From: an uncultured Gammaproteobacteria bacterium
GTDB taxonomy: Bacteria; Patescibacteriota; Patescibacteriia; UBA1558; GWA2-36-10
Reading direction: 5' to 3'
Assembly: GCA_964633905.1 (NCBI GenBank)
Contig: CAZWIT010000003.1
Location: 3,193 to 67,192 of the forward strand
Length of the DNA: 64,000 bases
Numbering within the stretch: the stretch's first letter is position 1; every line of letters starts with the position of its first letter. The notes below the pieces were generated by a model that made no database searches, was not told the DNA's origin, and saw nothing but the letters and a program-made list of their open reading frames with translations. Below, piece after piece: positions 2,982-64,000 of this stretch. A program made the translations under genes and the position numbers.

Positions 2982-4171
2982 TCAGAGGGAATGGTGCCGC
3001 CAAAACCAGTATCAGCCATTTTTTGACGTAAAAGTTTTTCGCCTCTGATCAATTTAGCAGTACAAGGGGCAACGGGGCGGTTGACATCCTGATTAAGGCA
3101 ATTGTAAGACTTATCTAAACAAGATCCGCCGTTACAACTGCAAGTATCAATGCCCTCAACAGTATTAATATAACATACATCTACCGCCTTACCATCCATA
3201 TGCTTTGGAATAGGTGGCTCACAGCTAGGAGCAGCTGCTTCATTACATTCTCCATTACAACTAGCTGTACAATTCTTATAGCAATTGTATAACTGTTCTT
3301 GTTTGGCATAGCTACGAAAAGCGCTTTTGATAATTATACTTTCTCCTTGTCCTAATTGTATTCCCTGTAGAGCCTGCCAAGCTTTAGGCACTAAACGTGC
3401 ATCCGAAGTGGAAACACGATCAATAATAATATTACCTCCAATTACTACCATATTTACTAAACCATTACCATCTTCTAGAGCACAACGTTTACTACTAGTA
3501 GCACTTGGTAAAGGCACGCAAGAACCACTAGCTGGTTGGTCAGCACTTTCAGCAATTGCTAACCAAGTGCAATAATTGTCTTCACAAATTTCTTTACTAG
3601 TAAAAGCACTACAATCTTCAGCAATAGAAACATCTTTGACTTGCAAAGCCTTAAAATTTACTAAATTAGAAGAAATTTGAGCTAAGAGCAAATAACTGCC
3701 AAATAAAAAAGCTAAACCAATCAAGGTGGTACTAACCGTTTCTTTGGCCATAGCGATCTTTGAAGCATTACCAGCTGCCATCAACCATTGCCAAGCGCCA
3801 TAAACCAACATAAACATTGCAAAAGCGCCGGCAATGACACCAGCATAGTTATAAATCGCTCTTATGTATTTAGCCAAAGACTCACCATTAATTCTATACT
3901 CAATATGTTTTTCGCCTGTTTTTTTATTTTCTACTTCTACTTTTTCAGTAAAAATTTTATCCATGCCTGGGATAAAAATATTTGGCCAAAAATATAAAGA
4001 ATCTTTTTGCTTGGCCTGCAGTTCTTCGGCTGTCGGCGTGTCTACTAGCGTACTGCCAGGCTCAGCTGGAACAAATCCTTGCGCTAAAACTTTTGGTAAA
4101 GCAAAAATAAAATTAATACCTAATATTATTAGCACTAAAAAACTAAGTATTATTTTTTTAATAAAAAACAT
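2951..4171 (-). CDS. Membrane protein with a VirB2/TrbC-like helical hairpin and a divergent Cys-rich C-terminal ectodomain (paralog B)
   Basis: Same core helical hairpin as 1905-2981, with a perfectly identical 147-bp nt stretch. The N-terminal region and the Cys-rich C-terminus differ. Confidence 0.45.
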   Translation of the reverse strand: MFFIKKIILSFLVLIILGINFIFALPKVLAQGFVPAEPGSTLVDTPTAEELQAKQKDSLYFWPNIFIPGMDKIFTEKVEVENKKTGEKHIEYRINGESLAKYIRAIYNYAGVIAGAFAMFMLVYGAWQWLMAAGNASKIAMAKETVSTTLIGLAFLFGSYLLLAQISSNLVNFKALQVKDVSIAEDCSAFTSKEICEDNYCTWLAIAESADQPASGSCVPLPSATSSKRCALEDGNGLVNMVVIGGNIIIDRVSTSDARLVPKAWQALQGIQLGQGESIIIKSAFRSYAKQEQLYNCYKNCTASCNGECNEAAAPSCEPPIPKHMDGKAVDVCYINTVEGIDTCSCNGGSCLDKSYNCLNQDVNRPVAPCTAKLIRGEKLLRQKMADTGFGGTIPSEWWHFYYTGP

Positions 4172-11009: not shown

Positions 11010-11141
11010 ACCCTGTTAAATAGTCCCTGCTTAAGCTGGGACTCCCGCTAATAAAACTTTGTGAGTTTGTTTTAAATTTAGGGTAATAATTTTATTAATT
11101 TTTTATGATGAAAGCAATAAGATGGCGGGATTTAACAGGGT
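11010..11141. repeat. MITE-like element, copy 1, bounded by 12-bp perfect inverted termini ACCCTGTTAAAT / ATTTAACAGGGT
   Basis: Termini read directly. Internal GC hairpins AGTCCCTGCTTAAGCTGGGACT and CCCGC...GCGGG. Three more copies with identical termini are elsewhere in the window. Confidence 0.6.
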
Positions 11142-11170
11142 TAATTATAACATATTTTAGCCTCCATCGC

Positions 11171-18239: not shown

Positions 18240-21200
18240 TTATGGATTAACTACTATCCAACCATCAAAAGCAATAGCATCTGCTCCTGTGTCGTCCCCT
18301 AAACCCCAACGATCAACTATATACATCTTAGGCTTAAAGCAGGCAGCATTTGGAGCTTGCCCAGTTACGCCCTTGGCTGCACAAGAGTGAGTTGGATCAT
18401 TAGTATATTGATAGTCATGATAAAAAATCTTATAACCCTGGCGACAAGCATTATCCAAACCACCAAAACCTGCAAGTCCAGCCGGCGTAGTGTCACAAGA
18501 ACCTACTGTGTCATCAGCGCATACATTAGGCATATTTTGATCAGATCTACAACTGAATAAAGCATTTTTATAGCGACCAGGAGCTGAAGAAAATCTACTA
18601 TCATCCCAATCCATCCTAATATTTACTACTGGCATATGATCTGGATGGGCATAAAAATATGATTTTACTGCTACGAACAAACTTTCTTTTGAGCTGATAA
18701 TACCATCTTGCTCTTCATTGATAGTAATACCACTTTGATAACCAACTATGCTTTGGTCAGCATTTCTAACAGCGCAAGCTGTTTCACCACAAACTTTCAA
18801 AGCGCGCGGCTTATAATCATCGCCAGCATAAGTATTTGGACTTAAGGTACTGTCATCAATAAATTCACTATCGTCACTGACTGCCACATAACTACCATTT
18901 ACTAAATTTAAATTATAAACATTAGCAAAAATTTTAGTCATACGGCTCCGAGCTTCAGGCCAGGCTGAAGCCAATGTAGATGAAGAAAAGAAAGTTACAG
19001 CCGAAGGTTGCTGTGGCCAAATTTGAGTTGGCGGAATTCTAGTAATAACTGCTTTATTAGGATTAAAGTAATCTAAGGCTGCGCCAAAATGAGTAAATAA
19101 ATTATCGCCCTGTCCAGATATACCAAAATAATAAACATCACGGCCGAGCTGATAAATAGCTCTATTATTAGATGAACGATAATAATAACTCAGCCAATCA
19201 TTTGGATCAGTGTCGTGTATTCTTAAAGTATCATTAGCTCTAGAATAGCGCCACCACATATCAGTACGCACCCAAGATTTATCACCAGCTGCGTCTAATT
19301 GCGTGATCAATCTACACTGCTGATAGCAATCACTGCCACAATCTATACCTTCTTTTTCTGGATCGTATGGCGTATCCGTGCGAATAATATTTCTTCTACT
19401 AGTAATTCTGCGATAAGAGGACAAATCCAAGAAGCCAACACTATCAGCTATTGTAATATCCTGACAAACTGCTCCAGCCTCATCGCCAATCGGAGTTGTA
19501 CAGCCCTCAACCTCTTCACCTAAACTAGAATTAACACCAGCGCCAACATCCAATACTATGCTACCATAAGTTTGATTTTGAGGACCAATAATGGTACAGG
19601 ATCCGGTACCGCCTGGCAAAGGATTAGGTATCGAATTAGGAATATTAGCTGTGACAATATTATAAATAATATCTAAACAACCAGATACACTAGCATAATT
19701 ATCATAAGACTCTTGATGAATGATGGCGCCTGGACATTCATAATCAACGCTTAATGTTCCTGTATTTTGAAATTCACCAAAATCACTACACCAATAAATC
19801 ATAGTACCGTTCTCATTATGGCTTTCACTACCAACTGCATTTACACAATTTTTAAAAGCACAATTCAAATCACCATTACAAGGCTGGGAAACATCAATAG
19901 CGCTATAATAAGGTTCATTACTCAAACAAATTGGTGTACTGTTATTAGTATTACTAGGAGGATTTCCTTCTGTGTGGCTACAATTTTCTTGCTGACAAAC
20001 TGTTACTACATTATTCACTCCTGCTGGAAAGGCTGGTTTTACATATATACCATGAGACATTGGACTACACCAACGATCTTGTTCTTTTTTATTATGACCA
20101 TTCCAACCACGCTGATCAAAACCACCAACATTAGTATTGTTAAAATCGCCATCCAAATATTGATTAAGCCAACTTTCATGCCAACCAGGCGCGCACTGCT
20201 CTAAATTATCAGCTACCCCATCTCCTGTTTCTTGTACGCCATAATTTTTATAAGTACCAATCGGGAAATACTCTTGACCAGGACGACTAGCAAAAGGCCA
20301 AACAATAGCACTTTCACCCCAATTACCATCCCTATTAATATAAGCATCATAAAAATATAGCTCTACTAACCCTGTACTCAAGGCATTGGCGTCAAAAATA
20401 TAATCAAAATTACTTAAAGGTAATACAGGTACCTTGCTACTAGCCGTTAAACCTAATGTCCTAGTGCTATCAAAATCTGAGGCTAAAAATAAACTACTAC
20501 CTTCACCAGTCCCGTATTCACCAAGGGAAGGACCCATGCCCAGCGGACTGCGCCAATTATCATTCCAATTAGTCTCAGTAAACAAAGCATTGGCTCCATT
20601 GCGATGCAACCAAGAAACACCTAAGCCAGTATAGGCTGATTGCACTTCATTTTGCCAGCCCATTTTTCTGACGCCATTAAATAACTGACCCGAAATGCCA
20701 TCAGTTACACTATCATCAGGACCATAAGCGCGTAATACTTCTGGATCAGTGTTTAAATAGCCAGCCACCAAAGTTGTCAAAGCTGGAGTATTATTAAAAG
20801 TACTATCCATATAGCGCAAATGGACTTTGGTGCCAGCTGGCACTTTAGCTAAAACTGAACAAAATTGCATATTGTATGGCGCCCCAGCAGTAAAAGTACT
20901 AACACAATAATATCTAGTTTCCGGCACTACATAATCTTCAGTAGCTGCACAGAATAAAGCATCTTGCCCAGTTGGATTATAGTAGCCAGCTTCTTGGTAA
21001 TTTTCATATAAACTATTTGTACCAGAAATTTGTTCAGCAGGATACCATTGGTTACAATAATAATCATTACCAGCATCTTTGACTAATTGATTATTATAAT
21101 CATAGCTTAGACAAATGCCTGACCAATTATTAATATTTTCTATTTTAGTATATTTTTCACAAAGACCATTTTGTTGCGAAACGCCATTATTGTCTACCGT

Positions 21201-24200
21201 GTCGCACTCGGCATTATTATTACAGGAGTAAACACTATTATTACCTGATACATCTGTCTTGCCAGCAGTACAAATTGCATTTGGTTGTGGCAATGACTTT
21301 GGATAATAACGCACTGTACTAGCACCATAAGTTACCTTACGATAAGACTGCTCACAACCATTAGGAGTCATAATCCGCGGATTATTTTGACTATTAGTAT
21401 CATTCTGACAATAATTAGCCGCACTATAAGACCTTAAAGCACCTTTATTTTCTTCGGCTGGAAAAATACTATGCGGGAAAGGCGCATCAATAGCAGCATA
21501 ACCTCTAGTACTTAAAGCCATGGTCGAAGTGCTAGTATCATTGATCTTAGGATTGAGCCAACAATAACCTGAATCACACTCACCTACATAAACACCTGCT
21601 ACAGCACCGACACTGCAAGCTAAACCATCATAAAGCACTGTGCCAGCTGCATTGCGACAAGCCGCAAAGAAATTACCATCATTAGTAACATTATCAAAAT
21701 AAGGGTAAGCAACTCTCACACTGCCATCATCAAAAGTATTAACCACTAAATCTTTTACTGGTAGCATATTAGGCAAAGAATAACCTAAATATTCTTCATC
21801 GCTCCACTGTAAATGCTCATTAGTACCTGTATCACGATTTTGATAATAAGCTGTACTCAAAACTGTCAAAGCAGGGTTTGGCTCTGCCCATTCGCTACAC
21901 TTAGTAACATTATTATTGCGGTCGTACTCAGTACAAGCTGATACGTCATCACAAACCGTTTTATAGCGATTGCTATCCCTATCCCAAACAGCTGTTGAAG
22001 AACGACAAGCTAACCATTCACTACATTGTCGATCTTTTTTAACTTTAACTAACATATTGGCATCTAGAGAACAAGAACCATCAATTTCTGGATCACAAAC
22101 AACTGGGCTGACTGCTTCTGCTCTAGCTAAATTTTCATCATAAGTTTTACCAGAATCATAGAGAGCTATAACTTCTTCATGCTTAGACTGCCAATAGTTG
22201 GCATCATAAAGTAAAATACAGCCTCCATTTTTATCAACACCGCCAGCGCAGGATTTTTGATCAATACTACTATTATTATAGTAATAATATTCCTGACAAG
22301 CTGGTGTCCAACGACCAGGTCCATCAAGGTCAGGATTTACATTATTAGTTGCCCCTTCACAGGCTAAACGACTATCAAAATCAAGGATATGACCATCATC
22401 AACATTACGACAAACACCATCTAAAGAGTTTGGATCAATACTAGGATCACAAGCTTCTGGATCTGAAGGGTCTCTTAAAGTGGTACACAAATTTTTATCT
22501 GCCGGACAATTAGCAACTAAATTATCAGTAGCTAAATCCCCAGCATCAAGACCAGGTGTAGCATTTGGCCAACAACCAACTGGATTAACAGTGAGTAAAG
22601 AATCTTTCCTAAAGAAGCCAGTCAAACCGTCAGCAGTTGCCCAAACACAATTATTAAATGCTAAATCATCCCCGTCTTCATCTACATCAGACGTATCAAA
22701 AACACCGTCACTATCACTACAGCCTAAAATATTATCTGTATTAAGCGAACTTGTTTTAAACCAACCAGAGTAGCTAATACCATTAACAATAATATTTGTT
22801 TGATAAGTACAAGTACCGCTACCTGGATCACGGAAATAGTAGATACCCTTGTCAGAAGAAAATTCCTCACAACCTAAGCCATCAGAATCACAAAGCGTAC
22901 TAGCGTATTGATCTGGATTATTAATTTTATAAACTGTATTCAAAAGATAGGGGTTGTTACGATCTGGCAAACCCAAAGCTTGACAACCTTTATAATCTTG
23001 GGAGCAATATTTAGTATTATCTGGCACTAAGTAAGCCAAATTATCAGCTGGCACAACTATTTGAGCTGCATTGCCAGCATTAAAAGTTTCTTCAAAAGGA
23101 TAAGTAGAATTTTGAGTATCAATCACTGCCGAACAACCAATAGCCTCCACTCGGCAGAGATTAGAAAATGATCTTAAATTAAATACTTTATTATTAGTAT
23201 CAGTATAACTCTGACAACCTAAATGGTAACCAACATAAGGGCTATCACAAGCAATTGGTGTTTCCCATGAGTTCCTTACCACTGAGATATTATCCCCTAC
23301 TTCTTTAAGTATAATATTATCGACATAAACACTAAAACCGGAACCAGCAACAATAACATTGAAATTCAAACGTAGATTATTTAAATCTAAACCAGTTGGA
23401 TCGGCTGTATAAATATAACTAAAGTAATGCCAATCGCCTGCTGAAATATTACGTAATTGACTATCATTAGGATCATAAAACACCTTAGGAGTAAGTATAC
23501 TAGGACTAGATAATAATACTTCTACACTATTTACTTGTATTTCACTCTTCATCCACCAACTTAACTTGTATTGCCGTGGACCTTCACCAATATTAGACAA
23601 AGGACGATAAAATGCCGCGCTATTGTCATTAGCATTTATTTTGATTGAATGACCATTATTTTCCAAAGCTTCTGAAGATAAGCTAACCACATCACTACTA
23701 CTAGCCCATGGGGCAAAAGTACCTTGCTCAAAATTATTAGAAAATATTTCGCGGACATTATTAGCAGTATTGCCAGTATAAAGATGACAACCATTAAATT
23801 CGGCACTACAAGCAATGCTTAAACTAGGAATTGTTTTATAAACTTCGCCAGAAGCTGTGCGTCGATATTCATGACAATCACTACTTGCATAAATTACCCG
23901 ATCTTGCAAACGATAAGATGGGCGACCATCAGTGTCAAAAAATTGACGACAATTTGGATTTACATCAGCATCACTACAAGTAGCAACTGGATATTGTGGC
24001 GCTGTATTATCCAAACAAGTTTCACCACCCGGAGCAATATTAGTACAAGGAGCTAAAGAGCCATTAGCCTCGGGAGCAGCATTAGTAACAAGTATCTGCC
24101 AAGTACGAATTTGATAACCAGCTGTATCTGACCCTTCCCAAGTGTAATAAGTAGTTCCTAAACTTTCAGCCACACATTGACGAATATAAGTAAAGTATTC

Positions 24201-27113
24201 TTTACCTTCACCGCCTTGAGCTACTTCGTCTAAATTTGTAAATTCTTCACAACCAATAGCAGATGCTGGACAAGCCTGGGCTGTGTTAGGTATAAAATTA
24301 TAATATTGAGTATCCGTATCACCCTCCATCACACTAAAAATACTAGGTGTTTCTGCAAAGCTAGCATAACCAACACATTCGGCTGGACATAAGTCACTAG
24401 GATTCACTACCGCCGGAATCATTGTTCCGCCCTCAGTTGGTGTATAGCCCTGACAACCTAATTCATCGGCAGTACACATAAATCGACTATCGTTCATGGT
24501 AATTTTACCGCCTGCGCCATAATCACTATAAGGAGAGGCAATTCTATCTACACTACTAACTATCTCTACCTTAATATCATCAAACCAAATTAAATCTGTA
24601 CCAGAACTAGCTAATAAATTTAATAAAGCTCCACTAGTATATTGGTTGGTAGTAAAAATACAACTTGATCTTTGAAATTCAACACCATTAGGAGTAAAAC
24701 GTAAATCAGCATCTTCATCGTGAGGAACATCACAAAATCTTGTGTCACCTAAAGGTGGAGGTACTGGACCAGCTGCGTTAGTATTACCAACAGCATCATC
24801 GCAATTACCAGTATTATCACACATAATCAAAGATATTCTAGCAGCGGGACTAGTAGCATTAGCCACATGTTGAGCAGCTGCAGCTGATATAGTATAGGTA
24901 GTATTTGGTAATAAATAAATTTTCTGTTGAAAACGCTGTGAATCTGGATGAGACGGATTGCCATATGTATAGCCATTAGCTACCTTGCCAGTAACGCTAT
25001 CATATTCAACACCATCACTAGGATTACCGCCATTATCAAGCCAACCGTCTGGCATGTTGTCTGCATTAGTATCAGCCAAGCTACCATTTGCAACTACATT
25101 AATACCTCTGTCAGCTGCCATCACTATATATTCATGACAACCAGCTTCTGACGAAGGACAATCTTGGGCCTGACGATTTAAAAATAAATCATTATCGTCT
25201 GTATTTATATCTTGCAAGACCCAATTATTTTCCTGGTTCATTTCTTGACTATAGCGCTTACAGCCAGCCTGATCAGCAGTACAATAACTTAAAGATTGCT
25301 CTAGATAGGATTCCTGACCAATTTCTGGATTATCAAAAGTCAAACAACCAGAATAAATATCACCTTGATTACATTGATCAGCTCCTAGGCGCCAGATATT
25401 TTCTGACTTAGTACAATAACCATATTGGTTATCTAGACAATTACCATTTTCATCTTCACGCAAACAAACTTGAGCATCAGCACAATATTGCTGACGAGTA
25501 TCAGTTTCTGGCGAATCAAGTAAAGGCGAATACACATAGGCCGAACAATAAGCAGCTGGTGCTTTTAATACCCAATTAGGATCAACTAAATGATAAAATG
25601 GATTATGTTGCTCACCATCAACAATAAAATCAGGACTTACTGGAAATGGACATTTTTCATCTTCAAAACAATCCATTGCCTGACGTAAAGTAACTGGGGT
25701 AATCAAATCACTACGCTGACTAGCCATTTCCCATCCGACTGGTATGATATTAGCCTTACGTAATTTTACTAAATTATTATAGCAGAACGCTCCCTTATAA
25801 CACTCCTGATTAGTGCGCAAGGTATCACTAGGATTAATAAACTGCCAAGCGCCATTTAAAATACCATTTTCTACTGCTTCTTTTACTGTTAATTTATTAC
25901 TAATTGCCTGCAAAAGATCAGTAGACATTACACAATTGTCTGGCTTACGAAACTGAGCTTCTTCTGGGCAAATTGAAAAATCATTAAGAAAACTATAAGA
26001 CTCAATCGGACTAATTTTTATATTTTTAAAATCTGTAAAAACATCAGCTCCGCGTGGATTCCTAATATCACCACCGCCTCGTAATTGATCCAATAAACTA
26101 TCCCTAAAATCATCATCTTTGCCAAAAATGTCAGCCATGGACCACATGCCGCCCTTAATCCATTTTTGTAATAATTTAGAGCTTAAAGTATTGGCAAAAT
26201 TACTAGCCGCATCTTTCATAATATCAGTTAATTTGCGATTAGTAGCCGCTTCTTTACGAGAAGCAATACGATTAGCTGAGTCTCGTACAGCCGCCGTCCA
26301 TTCCTCTTCAGTCATTTTTAAGATAACGGCACAATGTGTTTTAACTTCTAATGTAATAGCCGTTGCTTTATCTTTAAAACCCCTACATTCTTCTTCGCCC
26401 ATCTTAAAAACATCAACCGAAACCGCTTTACGATTATTAATCTCCCCTTGTAATTTAGCAAAAACACCTAGATCGCTTTGCTCTAAAGAGTAGGCTTTAA
26501 AATAATCCTCTATACCCTGCACTCCTTGCTGAGGGCTAAGTTGAAATTTAACTAACTCCGCAAAATTTTGATTGCCAAAACTTTCCCATCTTTTTTTAAC
26601 ATTAGTCCAATTACAACGACTAGCATAAGTTGTCTGAGGCGGCGCTTGTTCATTAATTAAAGAAAGGGTCAAGGTTAGTTTTACTTCTAAACTAGGTTCA
26701 CAAAGATCCAAGCCTAAATCAGCAAAATAAGTATTACTCAACTGACCAATAAATTCACCAACCGCTGCTTTTTGAGCACGATCCAAACTTTTAGTTATAC
26801 TTTCTGTTCTAAATAATGGCACATTGCCTGTACCGCCAGTAGCTATTTCAGTTGCAACATTATAAGCCAAATCATTCATGAACATTTCTACAGTACGATT
26901 AGCCAGATCTGCTCCTACCCAGCCCTGCACTTTACTCCAAGCATCATTAATCTTATCAGCAACATCACGCCTAGTCTGCGGTAGAGATTGTATAATATAA
27001 GCCATTAACGGACCGACCATTTGAGCATTTGCCGACCTTACCTGCGCTAATATAGCAGTGCCCATCAAAATCATCAATAAAGCAGCAATAATAATTTTTT
27101 TGTAGCGATACAT
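18240..27113 (-). CDS. Giant (2957 aa) secreted Cys-rich surface protein with jelly-roll/CBM-like modules; putative adhesin of the T4SS-like apparatus
   Basis: N-terminal signal peptide MYRYKKIIIAALLMILMGTAILAQVRSANA. Well over 100 Cys. Segments resemble CBM_4_9/laminin-G jelly rolls (...YKLSWWMKSE...VYVDNIILKEV). It sits 20 bp from both flanking genes in one operon. Confidence 0.6.
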   Translation of the reverse strand: MYRYKKIIIAALLMILMGTAILAQVRSANAQMVGPLMAYIIQSLPQTRRDVADKINDAWSKVQGWVGADLANRTVEMFMNDLAYNVATEIATGGTGNVPLFRTESITKSLDRAQKAAVGEFIGQLSNTYFADLGLDLCEPSLEVKLTLTLSLINEQAPPQTTYASRCNWTNVKKRWESFGNQNFAELVKFQLSPQQGVQGIEDYFKAYSLEQSDLGVFAKLQGEINNRKAVSVDVFKMGEEECRGFKDKATAITLEVKTHCAVILKMTEEEWTAAVRDSANRIASRKEAATNRKLTDIMKDAASNFANTLSSKLLQKWIKGGMWSMADIFGKDDDFRDSLLDQLRGGGDIRNPRGADVFTDFKNIKISPIESYSFLNDFSICPEEAQFRKPDNCVMSTDLLQAISNKLTVKEAVENGILNGAWQFINPSDTLRTNQECYKGAFCYNNLVKLRKANIIPVGWEMASQRSDLITPVTLRQAMDCFEDEKCPFPVSPDFIVDGEQHNPFYHLVDPNWVLKAPAAYCSAYVYSPLLDSPETDTRQQYCADAQVCLREDENGNCLDNQYGYCTKSENIWRLGADQCNQGDIYSGCLTFDNPEIGQESYLEQSLSYCTADQAGCKRYSQEMNQENNWVLQDINTDDNDLFLNRQAQDCPSSEAGCHEYIVMAADRGINVVANGSLADTNADNMPDGWLDNGGNPSDGVEYDSVTGKVANGYTYGNPSHPDSQRFQQKIYLLPNTTYTISAAAAQHVANATSPAARISLIMCDNTGNCDDAVGNTNAAGPVPPPLGDTRFCDVPHDEDADLRFTPNGVEFQRSSCIFTTNQYTSGALLNLLASSGTDLIWFDDIKVEIVSSVDRIASPYSDYGAGGKITMNDSRFMCTADELGCQGYTPTEGGTMIPAVVNPSDLCPAECVGYASFAETPSIFSVMEGDTDTQYYNFIPNTAQACPASAIGCEEFTNLDEVAQGGEGKEYFTYIRQCVAESLGTTYYTWEGSDTAGYQIRTWQILVTNAAPEANGSLAPCTNIAPGGETCLDNTAPQYPVATCSDADVNPNCRQFFDTDGRPSYRLQDRVIYASSDCHEYRRTASGEVYKTIPSLSIACSAEFNGCHLYTGNTANNVREIFSNNFEQGTFAPWASSSDVVSLSSEALENNGHSIKINANDNSAAFYRPLSNIGEGPRQYKLSWWMKSEIQVNSVEVLLSSPSILTPKVFYDPNDSQLRNISAGDWHYFSYIYTADPTGLDLNNLRLNFNVIVAGSGFSVYVDNIILKEVGDNISVVRNSWETPIACDSPYVGYHLGCQSYTDTNNKVFNLRSFSNLCRVEAIGCSAVIDTQNSTYPFEETFNAGNAAQIVVPADNLAYLVPDNTKYCSQDYKGCQALGLPDRNNPYLLNTVYKINNPDQYASTLCDSDGLGCEEFSSDKGIYYFRDPGSGTCTYQTNIIVNGISYSGWFKTSSLNTDNILGCSDSDGVFDTSDVDEDGDDLAFNNCVWATADGLTGFFRKDSLLTVNPVGCWPNATPGLDAGDLATDNLVANCPADKNLCTTLRDPSDPEACDPSIDPNSLDGVCRNVDDGHILDFDSRLACEGATNNVNPDLDGPGRWTPACQEYYYYNNSSIDQKSCAGGVDKNGGCILLYDANYWQSKHEEVIALYDSGKTYDENLARAEAVSPVVCDPEIDGSCSLDANMLVKVKKDRQCSEWLACRSSTAVWDRDSNRYKTVCDDVSACTEYDRNNNVTKCSEWAEPNPALTVLSTAYYQNRDTGTNEHLQWSDEEYLGYSLPNMLPVKDLVVNTFDDGSVRVAYPYFDNVTNDGNFFAACRNAAGTVLYDGLACSVGAVAGVYVGECDSGYCWLNPKINDTSTSTMALSTRGYAAIDAPFPHSIFPAEENKGALRSYSAANYCQNDTNSQNNPRIMTPNGCEQSYRKVTYGASTVRYYPKSLPQPNAICTAGKTDVSGNNSVYSCNNNAECDTVDNNGVSQQNGLCEKYTKIENINNWSGICLSYDYNNQLVKDAGNDYYCNQWYPAEQISGTNSLYENYQEAGYYNPTGQDALFCAATEDYVVPETRYYCVSTFTAGAPYNMQFCSVLAKVPAGTKVHLRYMDSTFNNTPALTTLVAGYLNTDPEVLRAYGPDDSVTDGISGQLFNGVRKMGWQNEVQSAYTGLGVSWLHRNGANALFTETNWNDNWRSPLGMGPSLGEYGTGEGSSLFLASDFDSTRTLGLTASSKVPVLPLSNFDYIFDANALSTGLVELYFYDAYINRDGNWGESAIVWPFASRPGQEYFPIGTYKNYGVQETGDGVADNLEQCAPGWHESWLNQYLDGDFNNTNVGGFDQRGWNGHNKKEQDRWCSPMSHGIYVKPAFPAGVNNVVTVCQQENCSHTEGNPPSNTNNSTPICLSNEPYYSAIDVSQPCNGDLNCAFKNCVNAVGSESHNENGTMIYWCSDFGEFQNTGTLSVDYECPGAIIHQESYDNYASVSGCLDIIYNIVTANIPNSIPNPLPGGTGSCTIIGPQNQTYGSIVLDVGAGVNSSLGEEVEGCTTPIGDEAGAVCQDITIADSVGFLDLSSYRRITSRRNIIRTDTPYDPEKEGIDCGSDCYQQCRLITQLDAAGDKSWVRTDMWWRYSRANDTLRIHDTDPNDWLSYYYRSSNNRAIYQLGRDVYYFGISGQGDNLFTHFGAALDYFNPNKAVITRIPPTQIWPQQPSAVTFFSSSTLASAWPEARSRMTKIFANVYNLNLVNGSYVAVSDDSEFIDDSTLSPNTYAGDDYKPRALKVCGETACAVRNADQSIVGYQSGITINEEQDGIISSKESLFVAVKSYFYAHPDHMPVVNIRMDWDDSRFSSAPGRYKNALFSCRSDQNMPNVCADDTVGSCDTTPAGLAGFGGLDNACRQGYKIFYHDYQYTNDPTHSCAAKGVTGQAPNAACFKPKMYIVDRWGLGDDTGADAIAFDGWIVVNP

Positions 27114-30069: not shown

Positions 30070-30204
30070 ACCCTGTTAAATAAATTTAATTAATAAAAAG
30101 TAAAAAAATATTTTATCAAATATACTTTAATTATAACACATAAACCTACACTTATTAAATTTAATTTTTTAAAGTCATACTTTAAAAAATTATTTAACAG
30201 GGTA
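30070..30204. repeat. MITE-like element, copy 2 (AT-rich interior), with the same 12-bp inverted termini
   Basis: ACCCTGTTAAAT at 30070-30081 and ATTTAACAGGGT at 30193-30204. The left terminus lies 5 bp from the MFS start codon. Confidence 0.6.
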
Positions 30205-41543: not shown

Positions 41544-41613
41544 CTATATAAAATAATTTGGTGGACCGTACCCCGTCTTTGGCGGGGCGACCTGTTCTAT
41601 TTTTTATTTCATT

Positions 41614-41690
41614 TGGTGGACCGTGGGAGAGTCGAACTCCCGACCTCTGCAATGCGAATGCAGCGCTCTAGCCAACTGAGCTAACGGCCC
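41614..41690 (-). tRNA. tRNA-Ala (anticodon CGC)
   Basis: RC reads GGGCCGTTAGCTCAGTTGGCTAGAGCGCTGCATTCGCATTGCAGAGGTCGGGAGTTCGACTCTCCCACGGTCCACCA. The G3:U70 Ala identity pair is present. Confidence 0.9.
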
Positions 41691-41695
41691 TAAAA

Positions 41696-41772
41696 TGGTC
41701 GGGGTGAGAGGACTTGAACCTCCGACCTCGTCGTCCCGAACGACGCGCGCTAGCCAACTGCGCCACACCCCG
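41696..41772 (-). tRNA. tRNA-Pro (anticodon CGG)
   Basis: RC reads CGGGGTGTGGCGCAGTTGGCTAGCGCGCGTCGTTCGGGACGACGAGGTCGGAGGTTCAAGTCCTCTCACCCCGACCA. Anticodon loop TTCGGGA. Confidence 0.85.
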
Positions 41773-41921
41773 CCTAAAACTATCTAATTCTAGCAAAAAT
41801 AATAGTTTAACTCAATAAAAAAACCACCCTTTTAGTGATTCACTATAATATAATAAACAAACAATTTTGTAAATAAATATCTTAGTCGATAGCACAAAGA
41901 ATTGTGCTACCTAAAAAACAT

Positions 41922-45708: not shown

Positions 45709-45840
45709 ACCCTGTTAAATCCCATACTAGATTTATTAAGAAATAAATAAATTAAAATAAACACAAATATTACTTTTAAAATAAAGGAAAGTCTTTCTTA
45801 TGGGAAGCTAAACGCCAAGCGTTTAGCTATTTAACAGGGT
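45709..45840. repeat. MITE-like element, copy 3, in the divergent promoter region between the DHH paralog and infB
   Basis: ACCCTGTTAAAT at 45709-45720 and ATTTAACAGGGT at 45829-45840. An internal perfect hairpin AGCTAAACGCCAAGCGTTTAGCT abuts the right terminus. Confidence 0.6.
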
Positions 45841-58053: not shown

Positions 58054-58710
58054 ATCTTTTTAAATACCCTGATATAATAACAGCTTTTAATCAAAAAATC
58101 AAGGTTTTTTGGGCAAATTGAAAAGGCGCATCCAGAGACACCCCAACATAAATTTTGTTTGTGGGCCGTAATGCGCCTCTGATGTATTCACTAATACTTC
58201 TGCTCGAGTATATGTTACTCGAAAAATTTTGTAAGTTTAAAATTGGCTAGAAGATATTATGTTGTAAACACATCACGTTTCCTTTTCTGACTCAAGGAAT
58301 TTTGTCCATTTTACCATTCTATGGTATCGGCTTCTAGTCTAGGACTAAGAGCGAACCTTTTTATATTTTTGTTTTTGTTTTTTTTGACAAAGCGGTCAGG
58401 GCGCTTCAAATTTGTAGAATAGTACAATGGAAAGATTTAGATATAAATAAATTTATATGCAAATCCTTAAATTTTTTAAAGATCTTACTTATCAACATTC
58501 TAATTATATCATATAATAGATAAAGTGTCAACGATAAATTAACGCTAATGTTAGATAAAATTTGATATATTTTTCATAACTGTTGACAAATTAAAATAAA
58601 AACACCAAAAGATATTAACAAGTTATCCACACCGTATAGTCGCTTTGCTCTTTACAGTGCCAGCACACTTCAAAAAAGATATAAAGTTATAAATATTGAT
58701 TATATTAAAG

Positions 58711-58733
58711 AAAAAACCAGCTCGTAGAGCTGG
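58711..58733 (-). terminator. Intrinsic terminator ending the pnp-downstream operon
   Basis: Stem CCAGCTC/GAGCTGG with a GTA loop; on the minus strand it is followed by UUUUUU. Confidence 0.65.
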
Positions 58734-58863
58734 GGGGCGGCAAGTCTCTTGATAGCAGAGCTATCATTGTAGGCGTCCCACTAACGCCTCGTTGTTCGGT
58801 GTAGTTTACCTACTCTTACCGTAATAAGAGTTTATAAAATACACCTTAAAATGTCAATATAAT

Positions 58864-60225
58864 CTAAAAACAAGCTTGCCAACCTATTTTTTCTTCATCC
58901 TGATAAGAGAATATAGTTAAATTAGTTACTCCCTTTGCTTCTAAAAGTCCTTTTAAGCTAGATTCTTCTAAACTATCGGCATTTAATAACAGTAAATCAT
59001 TAATTTGTAGCTTGCTGCTTGAGCAAGATTTCAGCAAATCAATTAATTTTACCTGACTAGCAATACTTTTCTCAATTATACTGGCTTGATTACTCAAATA
59101 ATAAGCCTCATTATTACCCCAGCCATACAAATTACCTATTTGCCAGTACTCTTGATCTCGATAATTATGAATTTGATTAGTGGGGGCATCTTCCATTTCA
59201 TAAGCAGTATAAGAAGTTTTATCAGGTAATAGTTTTTTTACCTCTTTTAGTTTAAAATCGGGTACGAGCTTAGCAGCCACTGCTTGCCAATCACTTAAAG
59301 ATAATAATAACCAGCCATCTTTATTCTTGATAATAAAACTACCCCTAAAAATAAGCTTACCTAGCTCCTCTTGCGAAATATTATAATATGGCAAATCTGG
59401 AAATAAATTGCTCAAAAAATATTGATTAATTAAATTTTGTTCTTCTTCATTTAAAGCACTAGAAAAACCAACGGCCAGATTACTATCATAAGGCACTAAC
59501 ACTTGATTAGGCCAGCTATAAGTAGAACTGGCATTTATTAAACGCCTTAACTTGTTCTGCCAAACATTAAAACTAAGTTTATTATTTTTAAGAACCTTCA
59601 AATTAGCATAAACGCTAGGATTTTCCGGGGCGATTTGCAACCACTTTGATAGTTCTGACAAGAATTCCGGAGCTGAATTTGTTTGCCAATAAATATTAAT
59701 GCCCGCATTAATACTAGTTTCTGCTAATAATGGCTCTGCGGCTGGCACTACCGCCTCTTTATCCTTAGCATAAACAAGTAAAACATCTTTTGCTAAAAGC
59801 TGATAATTAAACTCCGGTTTAATAGTAACTAAATTCTTGAGTACAGCCTTAGCATTATCAAGTCTTAACAGATAATAATCTGCTTTATTATCTTTAAGTT
59901 TAAACCAAATAACTTCTTCTGCCTGTGGCCAAGCATCTCCTAGTAAATTACTCAAAAATTGCTGCTGTTTGTTTGGCTCTTCTGATTTAATAATAGGCAA
60001 AGACTCTAAAATTTTATTATCTAAAAGATCGCGACTAGACCATTGCCAATAAAAACTAGTATTAGCTGGTAAATATTTTAAAGTAAAGCTAGCGCCACTT
60101 GGTGTCCAACGCATTAATAAAAATAAAAGCAATAAAAAAACCGGCAAAGCTAAAAAATATTTAACTTTAGAAAAATGCCGGTAATTTTTTACTTTTTCTT
60201 GCCAAGACACTTTTAATTTAAACAA
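58864..60225 (-). CDS. Hypothetical N-terminally anchored protein downstream of pnp
   Basis: 453 aa with a single N-terminal TM helix. No recognisable motif. Confidence 0.3.
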   Translation of the reverse strand: MFKLKVSWQEKVKNYRHFSKVKYFLALPVFLLLLFLLMRWTPSGASFTLKYLPANTSFYWQWSSRDLLDNKILESLPIIKSEEPNKQQQFLSNLLGDAWPQAEEVIWFKLKDNKADYYLLRLDNAKAVLKNLVTIKPEFNYQLLAKDVLLVYAKDKEAVVPAAEPLLAETSINAGINIYWQTNSAPEFLSELSKWLQIAPENPSVYANLKVLKNNKLSFNVWQNKLRRLINASSTYSWPNQVLVPYDSNLAVGFSSALNEEEQNLINQYFLSNLFPDLPYYNISQEELGKLIFRGSFIIKNKDGWLLLSLSDWQAVAAKLVPDFKLKEVKKLLPDKTSYTAYEMEDAPTNQIHNYRDQEYWQIGNLYGWGNNEAYYLSNQASIIEKSIASQVKLIDLLKSCSSSKLQINDLLLLNADSLEESSLKGLLEAKGVTNLTIFSYQDEEKIGWQACF

Positions 60226-62448
60226 TTAACGTTTAAAAAATGGTTTACGACCAGAGCCGCTAGCTGCTGGACGTCTCATCGGACGGCTATCTTGCTCTGT
60301 CCAACCTTCTGGCTTAGGTAATAAATCCTTAATAGATAAACTGACGCGATTATTTGCCTTATCAACGTCTACTACTTTTACTTTAACGGTGTCACCGATA
60401 TTAATTTGGTCAGTAATTTTAGCAATGCGTGTATAAGATACTTGAGAAATATGAACCATGCCATCTTTACCAGGCACAAGCTCTACAATTGCGCCAATTT
60501 CACTACCACTATTTCTATCTTTGATAATCTGAGTGACCTTGCCTTCATAAATTTCTCCCACTTCAATCTCTTTAACAATATTTTCAATCCAAGTTTTAGC
60601 TTTTTGTGCCCCTTCGCTATTAACAGAAGTGATTAACACTAAACCATCTTGTTCAATGTCAATTTGTACGCCACATTTATCAATAATCTCATTAATAATC
60701 TTACCGCCAGTGCCAATAACTTCTCTGATTTTTTCTGGATCAATCCGTAAAGTAATAATTCGAGGAGCATATTGAGAAAGTTCACTACGAGGAGCAGTGA
60801 TTGCTTTAGCCATGACTTCCAAAACTTTCATCCGAGCAACTCTGGCTTTGGTAATTGTCTCTTTAACAACATTATAAGAAATGCCGCCAAGCTTAATATC
60901 AAGTTGAATAGCAGTAATACCAGCTTCGGTGCCGGCTACTTTAAAATCCATATGACCAGAGTGGTCTTCGATGCCTTGAATGTCAGTCAAAATTTGATAT
61001 TTATTTGGGTCTTTGTCATCTACTACTAAACCCATGGCAATACCGGCAACTGGTGCTTTGATTGGCACACCAGCGTCCATTAAAGACAAAGTAGAACCAC
61101 AGATAGAGGCCTGTGAAGAAGAGCCATTGGAACCCAAAACTTCAGACACAACTCTAATAGTATAAGGAAAGTCCGCTCCGTCTGGTAAAACTGCTACTAA
61201 GGCTTTTTCAGCTAGAGCACCATGACCAATTTCTCTACGTCCTGGACCACGCAAAGGTTTAACTTCACCAGTAGAATAACCGGGGAAGTTGTAGTGGTGC
61301 ATATATTTTTTAGTACCCGACTCTTCCATACTGTCTAAAGTCTGCTCGTCTCCAGGTGCACCTAAGGTTACTACTGAAAGCACCTGGGTTTCACCACGAG
61401 AAAACAAAGCGCTGCCATGAGTACGTGGCAAAATAGCTACTTCAGCTGACAAGGGACGAATTTCATCAAAAGCTCTATTGTCTGGTCTTTTATTTTTTTC
61501 TAAAACCAAAGTTTTAAAAGTTTTTTCTAAGACCTGATCAAGCATAGCAATGCCCATGGCCCTAGCATCTTTAGAAACTTCATTATCAACTTTTAAAACC
61601 TGATCTAATTCTGTTTTTACTTCTTCAATAGCCGCTTTCATCTTAGACTTATCGGCTTGAAAACAATTATCTAAATTTTTAGTAGCCAAAAAAGTTTGGA
61701 CTTTATCCGTAACCAACTTGCGAATGGCAGCTTTTTCTGGATCAATGCTCGCTTCTTGTTTAGGAAGGCCAACTTCTTTGATAATTTTTTCAATAAAAGG
61801 CAAAATCTTTTGGATATGTTTACCAGCAAACTCAATGGCTTCAATCATCACTGCTTCTGGCACTTGTTTAGCACCAGCTTCAATCATAACTACTTGATCT
61901 TTGACACCAGCTACTAATAAATCAAAGTCGCTTTTTTGTCTAGCTTCAACACTAGGATTGATTACCCATTCCGAACCAATTCTACCAATCTTAATACCAG
62001 CCAAAGGCCCACCCCAAGTAATAGGAGAAATGCCCAAAGCTATTGAGGCGGCAATTAAACTAGGAAAATCAGGCTCATTAATACCATCATAAGACAAAAC
62101 CGTAACCACAACCTGCACGTCATTACGTTGACTCTCCTTAAATAAGGGACGGATGGAACGATCAATCAAACGAGCGGTCAAAATTGCATCATCTGTAGCC
62201 CTGCCTTCGCGTTTAATAAAACGGGAACCCTTAATCTTACCAGCCGCATACAATCTCTCCTCATAATCAACCATGAGTGGGAAATAATCTATACCCTCGC
62301 GTGGCGAGGAAGAAGAAACTGCTGTAGCTAAAACTACGGTTTCACCATAAGTGACCGTACAAGAACCTTGAGCCTGCTGAGCTAATTTGCCAACTTCAAC
62401 ACTTAACTCAATTCCGGCAACTTCGGTACTAAATTTTTTTACCGACAT
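60226..62448 (-). CDS. pnp: Polyribonucleotide nucleotidyltransferase (PNPase)
   Basis: Two RNase PH domains, a KH domain and an S1 domain. 740 aa. Confidence 0.9.
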   Translation of the reverse strand: MSVKKFSTEVAGIELSVEVGKLAQQAQGSCTVTYGETVVLATAVSSSSPREGIDYFPLMVDYEERLYAAGKIKGSRFIKREGRATDDAILTARLIDRSIRPLFKESQRNDVQVVVTVLSYDGINEPDFPSLIAASIALGISPITWGGPLAGIKIGRIGSEWVINPSVEARQKSDFDLLVAGVKDQVVMIEAGAKQVPEAVMIEAIEFAGKHIQKILPFIEKIIKEVGLPKQEASIDPEKAAIRKLVTDKVQTFLATKNLDNCFQADKSKMKAAIEEVKTELDQVLKVDNEVSKDARAMGIAMLDQVLEKTFKTLVLEKNKRPDNRAFDEIRPLSAEVAILPRTHGSALFSRGETQVLSVVTLGAPGDEQTLDSMEESGTKKYMHHYNFPGYSTGEVKPLRGPGRREIGHGALAEKALVAVLPDGADFPYTIRVVSEVLGSNGSSSQASICGSTLSLMDAGVPIKAPVAGIAMGLVVDDKDPNKYQILTDIQGIEDHSGHMDFKVAGTEAGITAIQLDIKLGGISYNVVKETITKARVARMKVLEVMAKAITAPRSELSQYAPRIITLRIDPEKIREVIGTGGKIINEIIDKCGVQIDIEQDGLVLITSVNSEGAQKAKTWIENIVKEIEVGEIYEGKVTQIIKDRNSGSEIGAIVELVPGKDGMVHISQVSYTRIAKITDQINIGDTVKVKVVDVDKANNRVSLSIKDLLPKPEGWTEQDSRPMRRPAASGSGRKPFFKR

Positions 62449-62639
62449 ATTTTTACCTTTCTGATGGTAAAAGACAGGCTAATTTTAAGTTGATTTGACA
62501 AATTTCAGCCTAAAAATATTTTAAGCTCAAATCTGCCAACCAACCTGACGACAAAACTGCTTTTACCCTAATTAAAATTTTATAAATATTATTTTTAAAG
62601 ACCCTGGGCCTAATATAAAGCTACAGGGTCTTATCAAAA

Positions 62640-62996
62640 TTATTCTTTAGTATCAACTTCCTCAATCGGATCTTTATCGATTTGAGCTTCTAGAATCAAA
62701 ACTTCTTCTAGATCTTTTCTTTCTTTTTTAGCAAACTTCAAACCCAAAGTTTTGATTAATTTACTAAAACGTTTTTCATCTTCTCTTTCTAAATAACGTA
62801 AGAGATGGTGACGTAAAGATACTTTAGCCAGTAAACCCCTGCGAGAAGAAAAATCCTTTTTATTCTCTTTTAAATGCTTGGTCAAATCCTTGATTTCTTC
62901 GGTTAGAATGGCTACCTGCACTTCTGGAGAACCAGTGTCATTTTTATGAGTTTTGAATTTCTCAATAATCCTCTGTTTCTTTTTTTTATCTAACAT
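62640..62996 (-). CDS. rpsO: 30S ribosomal protein S15 with a ~30-aa acidic C-terminal extension
   Basis: DTGSPEVQVAILTEEI...SRRGLLAKVSLRHHLLRYL is the S15 core. The rpsO-pnp order is conserved. Confidence 0.8.
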   Translation of the reverse strand: MLDKKKKQRIIEKFKTHKNDTGSPEVQVAILTEEIKDLTKHLKENKKDFSSRRGLLAKVSLRHHLLRYLEREDEKRFSKLIKTLGLKFAKKERKDLEEVLILEAQIDKDPIEEVDTKE

Positions 62997-63148
62997 TTTA
63001 CTTTTCCTTTCCCCTAAATCCTAGCCTAGGCTCTAAGTTAGTTAGTCAGCCTAAACCAAGTGTTTGGGATAAAAATAATTATTAAAGTAATAACAGACTA
63101 ACATTTTTAAAGAAAAAAGTCAATTCTAGAGCTTAAAATACTATAATA

Positions 63149-63177
63149 TTGACAAAATAAGGTAAATATGATATAAT
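63149..63177 (+). promoter_or_regulatory. Perfect consensus sigma70 promoter TTGACA-17-TATAAT driving the high-GC minigene
   Basis: TTGACA at 63149-63154, a 17-bp spacer, TATAAT at 63172-63177. A 7-bp hairpin TTAGGAG-CTCT-CTCCTAA lies at 63192-63209. Confidence 0.6.
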
Positions 63178-63241
63178 ATAAATATTAACTATTAGGAGCT
63201 CTCTCCTAATAAATTATTCACCCCGTCGAAAGCGAGTTGTC

Positions 63242-63415
63242 ATGTTCGATCGTTTCGCCAACAACTACGGCTACGGCGCGCAGCACGACATGGAGCGGGG
63301 AATGCTGGACTCCTGGTCCAGGATGCCCTTGCCCATCTTGATCGCCGTGACTGTCGCCTTCGTCGCTGGCCTGGGCCTGTGGCTCTGCCACGAGCTCCAT
63401 CTCTTCGGGATGTGA
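63242..63415 (+). CDS. Small (57 aa) hydrophobic peptide encoded in a high-GC patch; a foreign-looking minigene
   Basis: MFDRFANNYGYGAQHDMERGMLDSWSRMPLPILIAVTVAFVAGLGLWLCHELHLFGM. One predicted TM helix. Codons are GC3-rich (GCC, GTC, CTG, GGC), unlike the rest of the window. Flanked by a consensus promoter and an intrinsic terminator. The RBS is weak. Confidence 0.4.
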   Translation: MFDRFANNYGYGAQHDMERGMLDSWSRMPLPILIAVTVAFVAGLGLWLCHELHLFGM

Positions 63416-63447
63416 GCGTCTCCGGTCGTAAAACTCCACTGCGGTGG

Positions 63448-63476
63448 AGAGAGAGCCTGACCAGCTCTCTCTTTTT
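63448..63476 (+). terminator. Intrinsic terminator of the minigene
   Basis: Stem GAGAGAGC/GCTCTCTC with a CTGACCA loop, followed by TTTTTT. Confidence 0.75.
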
Positions 63477-63655
63477 TATTTAAAAACACTACTCCTACAG
63501 TCATCCTGAATTTATTTCCCACGGCCCGCCAAAGGCGGAGCCTCGCAGAATGCGGGGCGAGCAGGATCTCCAAATATAAATATAGCTATTTGGAGATGCC
63601 GAATCCGCCAGCCGGCGGATCGGCATGACGGTAGTGTCGTTTTATGATAAAATTA

Positions 63656-63710
63656 ACCCTGTTAAATAGTCCCGCCTTGCGGGACTGCCGCGAGCGGCAT
63701 TTAACAGGGT
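63656..63710. repeat. MITE-like element, copy 4 (minimal 55-bp form), directly abutting the recombinase start codon
   Basis: ACCCTGTTAAAT at 63656-63667 and ATTTAACAGGGT at 63699-63710. Internal hairpins AGTCCCGCCTTGCGGGACT and GCCGCGAGCGGC. Confidence 0.6.
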
Positions 63711-63716
63711 AAAAAC

Positions 63717-64000
63717 ATGAATAAACTTGATTTAAAAAAATACCAAGCTTATCTAAAGCTCCGTGGCCTAAAAAGCATTACTATTAAAAACTACCTTTGG
63801 CATGTTTCTAAATTTTTGCTGTGGCAACAAAATCAAGACCCTAAAAAAATTAATATTAGCAAATACCAAAGCCTGCAACTCAAAACTAAAAAAAATATTG
63901 GCAGTTTAAACTTGCATTTTACTATTTTAAATGATTATTTAAAATTTATTAAAAATAAAAACCAATTTAAACTACTATCCAAACCCTTTATTCCTAAAAA
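63717..64000 (+). CDS. Tyrosine recombinase/integrase (XerC/XerD-like), N-terminal SAM-like core-binding domain; 3' partial, runs off the window
   Basis: MNKLDLKKYQAYLKLRGLKSITIKNYLWHVSKFLLWQQ... matches the phage-integrase N-terminal SAM-like domain pattern (YxxYLxxxGxSxxTIxxYxxxLxxF). Confidence 0.55.
   Translation, partial: MNKLDLKKYQAYLKLRGLKSITIKNYLWHVSKFLLWQQNQDPKKINISKYQSLQLKTKKNIGSLNLHFTILNDYLKFIKNKNQFKLLSKPFIPK

Follow-up and report, generated by a model that had tools for sequence, protein, structure and literature searches.

The described systems closest to the locus reported here are integrons, phage morons, chromosomal hot spots of horizontal gene transfer (HGT) and type I toxins. 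The locus is a GC-rich minigene at 63149-63480 of a 64,000-nucleotide stretch of Patescibacteria DNA from contig CAZWIT010000003.1 (the whole stretch is called the window below), and it lies between rpsO and the gene of a Xer-like tyrosine recombinase. In integrons, a tyrosine-recombinase gene adjoins a variable array of unrelated and mostly orphan small open reading frames (ORFs), a resident promoter stands before the first position, the content varies between close relatives and the composition of the cassettes is unlike that of the host. Each of these features is also seen here; to illustrate the third, three relatives hold three cassettes (L009), one (L034) and none (L010), the L numbers designating the contigs compared.

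A parallel can also be drawn with phage morons, which, following the concept of Hendrix and colleagues, are reportedly autonomous promoter-ORF-terminator units located between phage genes. The minigene shares with them a self-contained promoter, ORF and terminator, a deviant base composition and accessory products that are often membrane or secreted proteins. It differs from them by its flanks, which are pnp, rpsO, the resident recombinase and cytochrome b5, by a promoter that belongs to the conserved flank, and by the lack of any phage, viral or PHROG match for its ORF or for the locus. Chromosomal HGT hot spots have conserved core flanks and a high accessory turnover among near relatives, as does this locus, but exchange here takes place on an unusually small scale, that of one transcription unit of 0.3-1 kb, the breakpoints fall at the transcription start site (TSS) and at the terminator, and the cargo is uniformly GC-enriched.

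Neither the definition of an integron nor that of a moron covers the locus, which has no phage context, no IntI and no attC, and whose genes are oriented the wrong way; it is best labelled a moron-like or integron-like cassette hot spot. With moderate confidence, we propose that the minigene currently fills an exchangeable slot located between rpsO and the recombinase gene, and that it forms a self-contained, probably constitutive transcription unit. A sequence-only reading of the window had described a foreign-looking, self-contained cassette for a small peptide with a single transmembrane (TM) helix, at an acquisition site next to a tyrosine recombinase. This part has been retained, whereas the integrative element and the assembly chimera that it had offered as explanations have been abandoned.

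A GC-rich minigene and its proposed exchangeable slot

All the elements first described for the minigene were found again by scans and folding, in a Patescibacteria genome and on the + strand. The sigma-70 consensus promoter (63149-63177; TTGACA-17-TATAAT with a TG upstream of the -10) scores 12/12 and is the sole promoter with this score within the 1.6 kb scanned; TTGACAAAAT occurs in one exact copy only within the 64 kb, at this promoter. It is followed by a 5'-terminal stem-loop (63190-63211; TTAGGAG-CTCT-CTCCTAA, 9 bp when extended, -9.9 kcal/mol), a probable coding sequence of 57 codons that we call ORF57 (63242-63415; MFDRFANNYGYGAQHDMERGMLDSWSRMPLPILIAVTVAFVAGLGLWLCHELHLFGM), a small hairpin of the 3' untranslated region (UTR) (63434-63449; CTCCAC-TGCG-GTGGAG) that overlaps the terminator stem, and an intrinsic terminator (63446-63480; 11-bp stem, 7-nt loop and T-run, -15.8 kcal/mol). 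The encoded peptide has a polar N-terminal half and a single, C-terminal hydrophobic helix (LPILIAVTVAFVAGLGLWL, residues 30-48, codons 63329-63385), where the 19-residue Kyte-Doolittle mean reaches its maximum of 2.36. One TM helix is thus predicted, in agreement with the earlier description.

While the window has a GC content of 34.7%, that of the minigene island is 61-65%, with a peak of 65% across 63184-63514. The contrast between GC-ending codons and AT-rich surroundings, already perceived in the bare sequence, was confirmed since the GC content at third codon positions (GC3) is 0.88 in ORF57 and 0.24-0.27 in pnp, rpsO and the next gene.

The evidence for exchange comes from close relatives. 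When the window is compared with L003 by blastn, the two share 90.7% identity along 3.1 kb of left flank up to 63179, 2 nt past the -10, and the homology restarts at 63474, in the T-run of the terminator. In place of 63180-63473 of the window (+ strand), which comprises the 5' hairpin, the UTRs, the ORF and the terminator stem, L003 carries a different unit of 606 bp. The exchanged segment therefore corresponds exactly to the predicted transcribed unit. The homology of L007 and L004 to the window likewise ends at 63175-63182, and as it runs through the promoter in all three relatives, the minigene promoter is part of the inherited flank. Indeed, an alignment of 8 cassette-bearing loci shows no variation in T.TTGACAAA or in the extended -10.

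In a second group of relatives, L009, L010 and L034, the flanks share 88-95% identity but the slots contain 1944, about 130 and 612 bp, respectively. Their slot edges fall after the rpsO promoter, the flank homology stopping directly after a block '...aaaagtcaa', and at the recombinase promoter block GTGTCGTTTTATG. In the window, the former block belongs to a promoter-like site of rpsO on the minus strand (63095-63123, TTGACT...) and the latter is GTGTCGTTTTATGATAAAAT, with an extended -10, on the + strand (63634-63653); they are the conserved left and right edges of the slot in all lineages.

The loci were located via homologues of the recombinase, all from Patescibacteria, some of them labelled Komeilibacteria, and the census of the slot covers 17 lineages including the window. 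The order pnp-rpsO-slot-recombinase, often with cytochrome b5, is kept down to 43% recombinase identity in tblastn comparisons, even where the slot is empty. The slot itself is hypervariable: eight lineages have an empty slot or one holding only small hairpins (L010, L011, L012, L018, L022, L023, L033 and L038), and nine have an occupied slot. Besides the 57-aa ORF of the window, the occupants encode a 161-aa secreted protein (L003/L008), a 156-aa ORF (L004), a 29-aa TM peptide (L007), a 66-aa zinc ribbon (L013), a 66-aa protein with two TM helices (L034) and a 311-aa beta-propeller-like protein (L037), and arrays of at least three cassettes (L005) and of three cassettes over 1.9 kb (L009) are also observed. 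These occupants are mutually unrelated orphan ORFs, 1-3 per slot, each with its own terminator; the only family assignment among them is a weak phage-family match for the zinc ribbon. Every one is GC-enriched, with a GC3 of 0.47-0.91 against 0.19-0.42 in the adjacent recombinase genes. 5' hairpins are present in other cassettes too, with a different sequence each time (L003, L007, L013 and L032).

The conserved left neighbour of the slot, rpsO (62640-62996, minus strand), was identified in the ORF list, by a match of the identical protein of L001 and L002 to Pfam Ribosomal_S15 and by tblastn synteny. Its product S15 has 118 aa, with an acidic C-terminal tail. Bacterial S15 proteins usually have about 89 aa.

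According to these comparisons, cassette mobility is independent of the recombinase. Over 926 bp, the L005 and L009 arrays share 83.7% of their nucleotides, whereas the adjoining recombinases share 44% identity at the protein level and have no DNA match. Two ORFs common to both arrays show a ratio of nonsynonymous to synonymous substitution (dN/dS) of 0.44-0.48 and an in-frame indel, which argues that cassette ORFs are genes. Unrelated cassettes of L004, L005, L009 and L034 end in one common terminator (CCACCATCAGGTGGA...). Only three relatives of the 161-aa cassette protein were found, two of them in other contexts: L032 is an array of three promoter-ORF-terminator units, and in L028 the cassette lies between an HD-domain gene and bipA. 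In both, the GC-rich ORFs follow a promoter of the minigene type.

On this basis, we propose that the consensus promoter fires at about 63184 and that the resulting mRNA of about 295 nt begins with the stem-loop, which could protect its 5' end. Translation from a weak and structurally occluded Shine-Dalgarno (SD) sequence would yield a 57-aa peptide whose single helix would be inserted in the membrane, and the transcript would end at the strong intrinsic terminator. The slot is flanked by the rpsO promoter and that of the resident recombinase, which diverge from each other, and in close relatives it is the segment from the predicted TSS to the terminator that is replaced, the promoter and the downstream flank being inherited.

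The high GC3 of the cassettes is apparently not what one recent transfer would have left behind. The three homologues of the 161-aa cassette protein, which share 53-63% identity and all lie in AT-rich surroundings, have a GC3 of 0.84-0.94 and 84-97% G+C at four-fold sites. These sites are saturated between L003 and the other two (identity 0.45-0.52, for 0.41-0.49 expected) and less diverged between L032 and L028 (0.65, for 0.48 expected). We found no homologue of this cassette in any high-GC genome. It thus looks as if the high GC were an equilibrium property of the cassette pool. It may be caused by an unsampled reservoir, by selection on mRNA or by biased gene conversion. As a separate observation, L028 (1-8462) is a compositional mosaic with genes at 0.35-0.42 or 0.50-0.60 GC, several of the GC-rich ones being preceded by TTGACAA-type promoters, and GC-rich hairpin repeats (CCTCCCCTTAGTAAGGGGAGG...) are common to L028 and L034 (3390-3500).

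Cassette entry and the neighbouring recombinase

One would then wonder how cassettes enter the slot. Recombination at the short conserved sequences of the promoter and terminator flanks, or illegitimate insertion in a permissive gap between divergent promoters, is the answer that we tentatively put first. The neighbouring recombinase could also be a candidate catalyst, for which our confidence is somewhat lower. We also considered a target-site duplication, given a 9-bp direct repeat AGCTCTCTC at 63197 and 63463 (20 nt at 75%) that flanks the GC island. This candidate was rejected: nine such families occur in 1.1 kb and the pattern is seen in no other cassette, so that the repeat is taken as chance or as a by-product of two similar hairpins.

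The recombinase gene is on the + strand and its 5' part (63718-64000) is cut by the end of the window; the complete gene is found in L001 (5173-5961) and encodes 262 aa. Among proteins with a solved structure, its closest relatives are archaeal XerA. However, the best model, XerA_Arch, gives 107.6 bits for a cut-off of 220, XerD 66 for 330, and the integron integrase TIGR02249 34.4 for 265, with a match limited to residues 7-153. Compared with XerA and XerD, GLR is changed to GLK (with His in one orthologue), HxLRH to QILRH and LGHS to NLNLS. Three of the six canonical catalytic residues (R-K-H-R-H/W-Y) are thus replaced, Arg-I by Lys or His, His-II by Gln and His-III by Leu, while Arg-II and Tyr are kept, and the variant residues recur in all the orthologues that were aligned or inspected by eye. 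The protein also diverges much faster than its neighbour polynucleotide phosphorylase, the pnp product (82% against 97% identity in one comparison, 54% against 81% in another).

The proximity of this gene had suggested that the cassette was carried by an integrative element. The recombinase does adjoin the cassette, but as a resident gene: it is inherited vertically together with both flanks and remains syntenic beside an empty slot, which speaks against such an element. An integrative mobile element exploiting Xer (IMEX) at a dif site was likewise discarded, as the recombinase stays below the XerA and XerD thresholds and the GC skew keeps one sign across the window and beyond the recombinase in L001, the lack of a switch making a terminus site of the dif type unlikely.

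Several of our observations weigh against the proposed slot. Half of the catalytic residues of the recombinase are altered, as said above, and the enzyme is retained beside empty slots, so that it is its adjacency which suggests a possible role in cassette turnover. Beyond the T-runs, the cassette ends yielded no core site for recombination, and the L028 cassette has no recombinase next to it. The sample of 17 lineages is small. As for ORF57 itself, its SD sequence is weak (GAAAGCGAG) and the SD/AUG region is predicted to be mostly paired (unpaired probability 0.02-0.2); an antisense ORF of 100 aa (63271-63573) has its third positions in common with ORF57, so that codon periodicity alone leaves the strand unfixed; and no search gave a significant homologue of ORF57 from which selection on its reading frame could be read.

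The points that concern the recombinase also bear on an alternative in which the locus would be an integron-like platform, the Xer-like enzyme inserting and excising transcript-shaped cassettes beside a resident promoter in the manner of attI and Pc. Cassettes and arrays indeed always accumulate between the rpsO and recombinase promoters, and the array shared by L005 and L009 stops exactly at the recombinase promoter block despite recombinases that are only 44% identical. The promoter lies in the conserved flank, the swapped part begins at the TSS, and structured hairpin elements that covary stand between the cassette and the recombinase. Against this, the recombinase is not an IntI by its scores or its active site and lies downstream of the cassettes and co-directional with them, not divergent. 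The cassettes end in terminators made of a GC stem and a T-run, with no attC-type site or conserved core at their ends, and inner cassettes of arrays carry promoters of their own (TTGCCT-17-TACAAT). Moreover, the recombinase is kept with an empty slot in 8 lineages, and in L028 GC-rich cassettes stand behind a similar promoter in its absence. Altogether, we regard an integron-like platform as unlikely.

A bolder hypothesis would be a capture and expression platform of Patescibacteria that has not been described so far, where promoters of the type TATTGACAAAAT...TATGATATAAT would dock transcript-shaped units drawn from a GC-rich pool with GC3 at equilibrium, and where exchange would be ensured by the variant recombinase or would proceed via an RNA/cDNA intermediate. 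We consider this rather improbable. In the literature, we found nothing relevant on integron-like or hypervariable loci in Patescibacteria, nor on the sample accessions.

The putative product of ORF57

Our searches identified no donor for the cassette. ORF57 had no match in a word-indexed search of 5.8 billion proteins, none when genome, viral and metagenome contigs were scanned with its back-translation, and no family match in Pfam, NCBIfam, PHROGs or PADLOC; a blastn search with the cassette DNA against phage and plasmid records was negative, and neither the promoter pattern nor the recombinase had a match in viral contigs. The cassette terminator motif did occur in two viral contigs of 69% GC, which was taken as chance. 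An exhaustive HMMER search with ORF57 returned three proteins, P0027, P0028 and P0029. P0027, the C-terminus of which is a TM anchor, and P0029, which comes from a metagenome-assembled genome of Actinomycetota, are related repeat proteins with 'DKFANNYGYG' repeats. They were examined as homologues from a high-GC donor and rejected, since their score adds up 3-4 near-identical 10-residue repeats that are insignificant taken singly; in P0030, a near-identical cluster member, the best single stretch reaches 14.4 bits (i-Evalue of about 4e3 at library size). P0028 is a repeat protein judged to be unrelated. Matches that consist of summed repeats were not counted as homology, and the search against high-GC genomes that had been suggested thus gave no significant match, an actinobacterial or proteobacterial donor being hypothetical.

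The peptide is most likely an envelope-acting accessory factor, and a toxin-like role is possible. In the most explicit version of the latter, ORF57 would be a membrane-damaging peptide restrained by the structure of its mRNA and by an antisense RNA, as in type I toxin-antitoxin systems. Type I toxins such as Hok, TisB, Fst and AapA1 are peptides of less than 60 aa with one TM helix, translated from highly structured mRNAs with an occluded initiation region and possible pairing between the 5' and 3' ends. ORF57, with 57 aa, one hydrophobic helix, a weak SD and an initiation region predicted to be paired, has a similar appearance. Pairing between the 5' hairpin and the terminator had been anticipated. 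Complementarity does exist between 63194-63206 and 63446-63458, with 11 pairs out of 13, but the fold in which it is enforced (-107.7 kcal/mol) is 7.4 kcal/mol less stable than the one with local hairpins (-115.1 kcal/mol). On the minus strand, an antisense RNA could be delimited by a promoter-like site (63602-63573) and a hairpin resembling a terminator (63212-63189); the former is weak, matching at 9/12 positions, and lies inside a hairpin, and these two features are all that could be found of an antisense RNA gene. ORF57 has no sequence relation to known toxins and matches no toxin family in the databases named above, and the slots of relatives hold secreted proteins of 150-310 aa and a zinc ribbon, which are not toxin-like. 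A perfect constitutive promoter before an unguarded toxin would also be odd. A type I toxin at this locus is thus distinctly unlikely.

When a GC island of an AT-rich genome has a promoter and a terminator, it is normally a structural RNA, and for this reason an RNA gene was the first possibility to be tested. In such a case the minigene would be a structured non-coding RNA and its ORF an accident of GC-rich sequence. The sole comparable GC island of the window is a tRNA cluster (41553-41814), the + strand folds with a z-score of -3.5, and ORFs of this length arise easily at 61% GC, antisense ORFs of 73 and 100 aa being also open in the island. Nevertheless, the minus strand folds just as stably (z = -3.9), which indicates that this stability is compositional. 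No Rfam match was obtained at E<=1 across 60000-64000, nor at the island when the whole window was searched at the gathering threshold, and no tRNA or tmRNA was detected there by ARAGORN.

The ORF had initially been singled out as such. Its length carries no weight in DNA of 61% GC, where by our own arithmetic it would be open by chance with a probability of about 0.17, and the evidence for coding is therefore its periodicity. GC1, GC2 and GC3 amount to 0.57, 0.40 and 0.88, a positional spread that none of 20,000 shuffles matched (permutation p < 5e-5), and the 3-base periodicity is confined to ORF57, with none downstream of the stop codon. The + strand is preferred over the antisense frame because of the orientation of the promoter and terminator, because GC1 exceeds GC2 in this frame only, and because periodicity is absent outside ORF57. 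In addition, analogous units in relatives are demonstrably protein-coding. A non-coding RNA is then very improbable, and the minigene probably codes for a protein.

An assembly chimera or contaminating high-GC DNA, in favour of which nothing speaks but the sharp GC boundaries, has a virtually nil probability: the whole unit is present in a Logan assembly built from a different sequencing run (L001, DRR784968) with both AT/GC junctions identical and one single-nucleotide polymorphism, and the left junction and the cassette up to the contig end are present in one built from a further run (L002, SRR13355620), an identical S15 protein is encoded on both of these contigs and on a third, of ERZ1426840, analogous GC-rich units stand at the same place in relatives, and the boundaries fall at the TSS and the terminator and not at arbitrary points. 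As far as sequence data go, the chimera is refuted and the minigene is real. On the ERZ1426840 contig, a 79-aa gene is called at the position of ORF57 and on its strand. As it starts and ends differently, it may be an alternative slot allele of the same species.

Neighbouring elements and biological meaning

The region between the terminator and the recombinase gene is also structured. A second GC-rich block (63480-63720) folds very strongly (z = -8.15). It includes, on the + strand, a multi-hairpin element closed by GTCAT...ATGAC (63501-63630), delineated from the fold z-score, the folds of orthologues and patches of homology to L003. The element is conserved, with covarying arms, in L003 (about 3770-3848), L009 (2102-2206, where it has the shape of a four-way junction) and L007 (578-662); its position is after the cassette in both the window and L003, but before the cassettes in L009. 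Two of its loops that are AT-rich in L003 contain, in the window, inserted short GC hairpins with CCGCC/GGCGG cores, which resemble mobile GC clusters.

The terminal inverted repeat element that had been thought to bracket the cassette proved to lie downstream of it, in the 5' leader of the recombinase gene (63653-63713, + strand). Folding and repeat searches show a Y-shaped element between the -10 and the ATG, made of an inverted-repeat stem (CCCTGTTAAAT/ATTTAACAGGG) and two GC hairpins. It is also present in L004 (4936-5000, with the order of the hairpins swapped), L010 (3935-3997) and L034 (about 3935-4000), with compensatory changes between species. In L003, L006, L007, L009, L013 and L021, which are devoid of it, the recombinase ATG lies 6-7 nt past TAAAAT, which suggests leaderless mRNAs. 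The corresponding 12-nt inverted repeat ACCCTGTTAAAT/ATTTAACAGGGT forms four pairs in the window, with inner parts of 30-120 nt, at 11010-11146, 30070-30203, 45709-45840 and 63656-63710. The three that were checked (11010-11146, 30070-30203 and 63656-63710) are intergenic, and one pair fills the entire gap between two genes. The repeat sequence is found at other places in L012 and L013, and the pairs look like a family of miniature inverted-repeat transposable elements or of protein-binding sites.

Elsewhere in the window, a second mini transcription unit of similar style was noticed on the minus strand (58725-58857). It consists of a promoter TATTGACA-17-TATAAA and a predicted transcript of about 110-130 nt with an initial 5' hairpin, two hairpins and a terminator (CCAGCTCTACGAGCTGG and T-run). 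Its sole ORF has 20 codons, it gave no significant Rfam match, and it is a candidate small RNA. This strand also carries another strong promoter, TTGACAC...TATGATATAAT, at 58531 and an ORF of 2957 aa at 18240-27113.

The genomes of Patescibacteria, also known as the candidate phyla radiation (CPR), are tiny, and little is understood of how these ultra-small bacteria acquire and express new genes. The locus described here is a compact and sharply bounded site at which single transcription units are swapped between close relatives, and its cargo consists of orphan membrane or secreted proteins, the kind through which contact with host cells would be expected to take place. If a dedicated mechanism ensures this exchange, it would represent a new route of gene capture; if none does, the slot would still be a natural marker with which recent horizontal gene flow could be cleanly traced in an uncultivated lineage.

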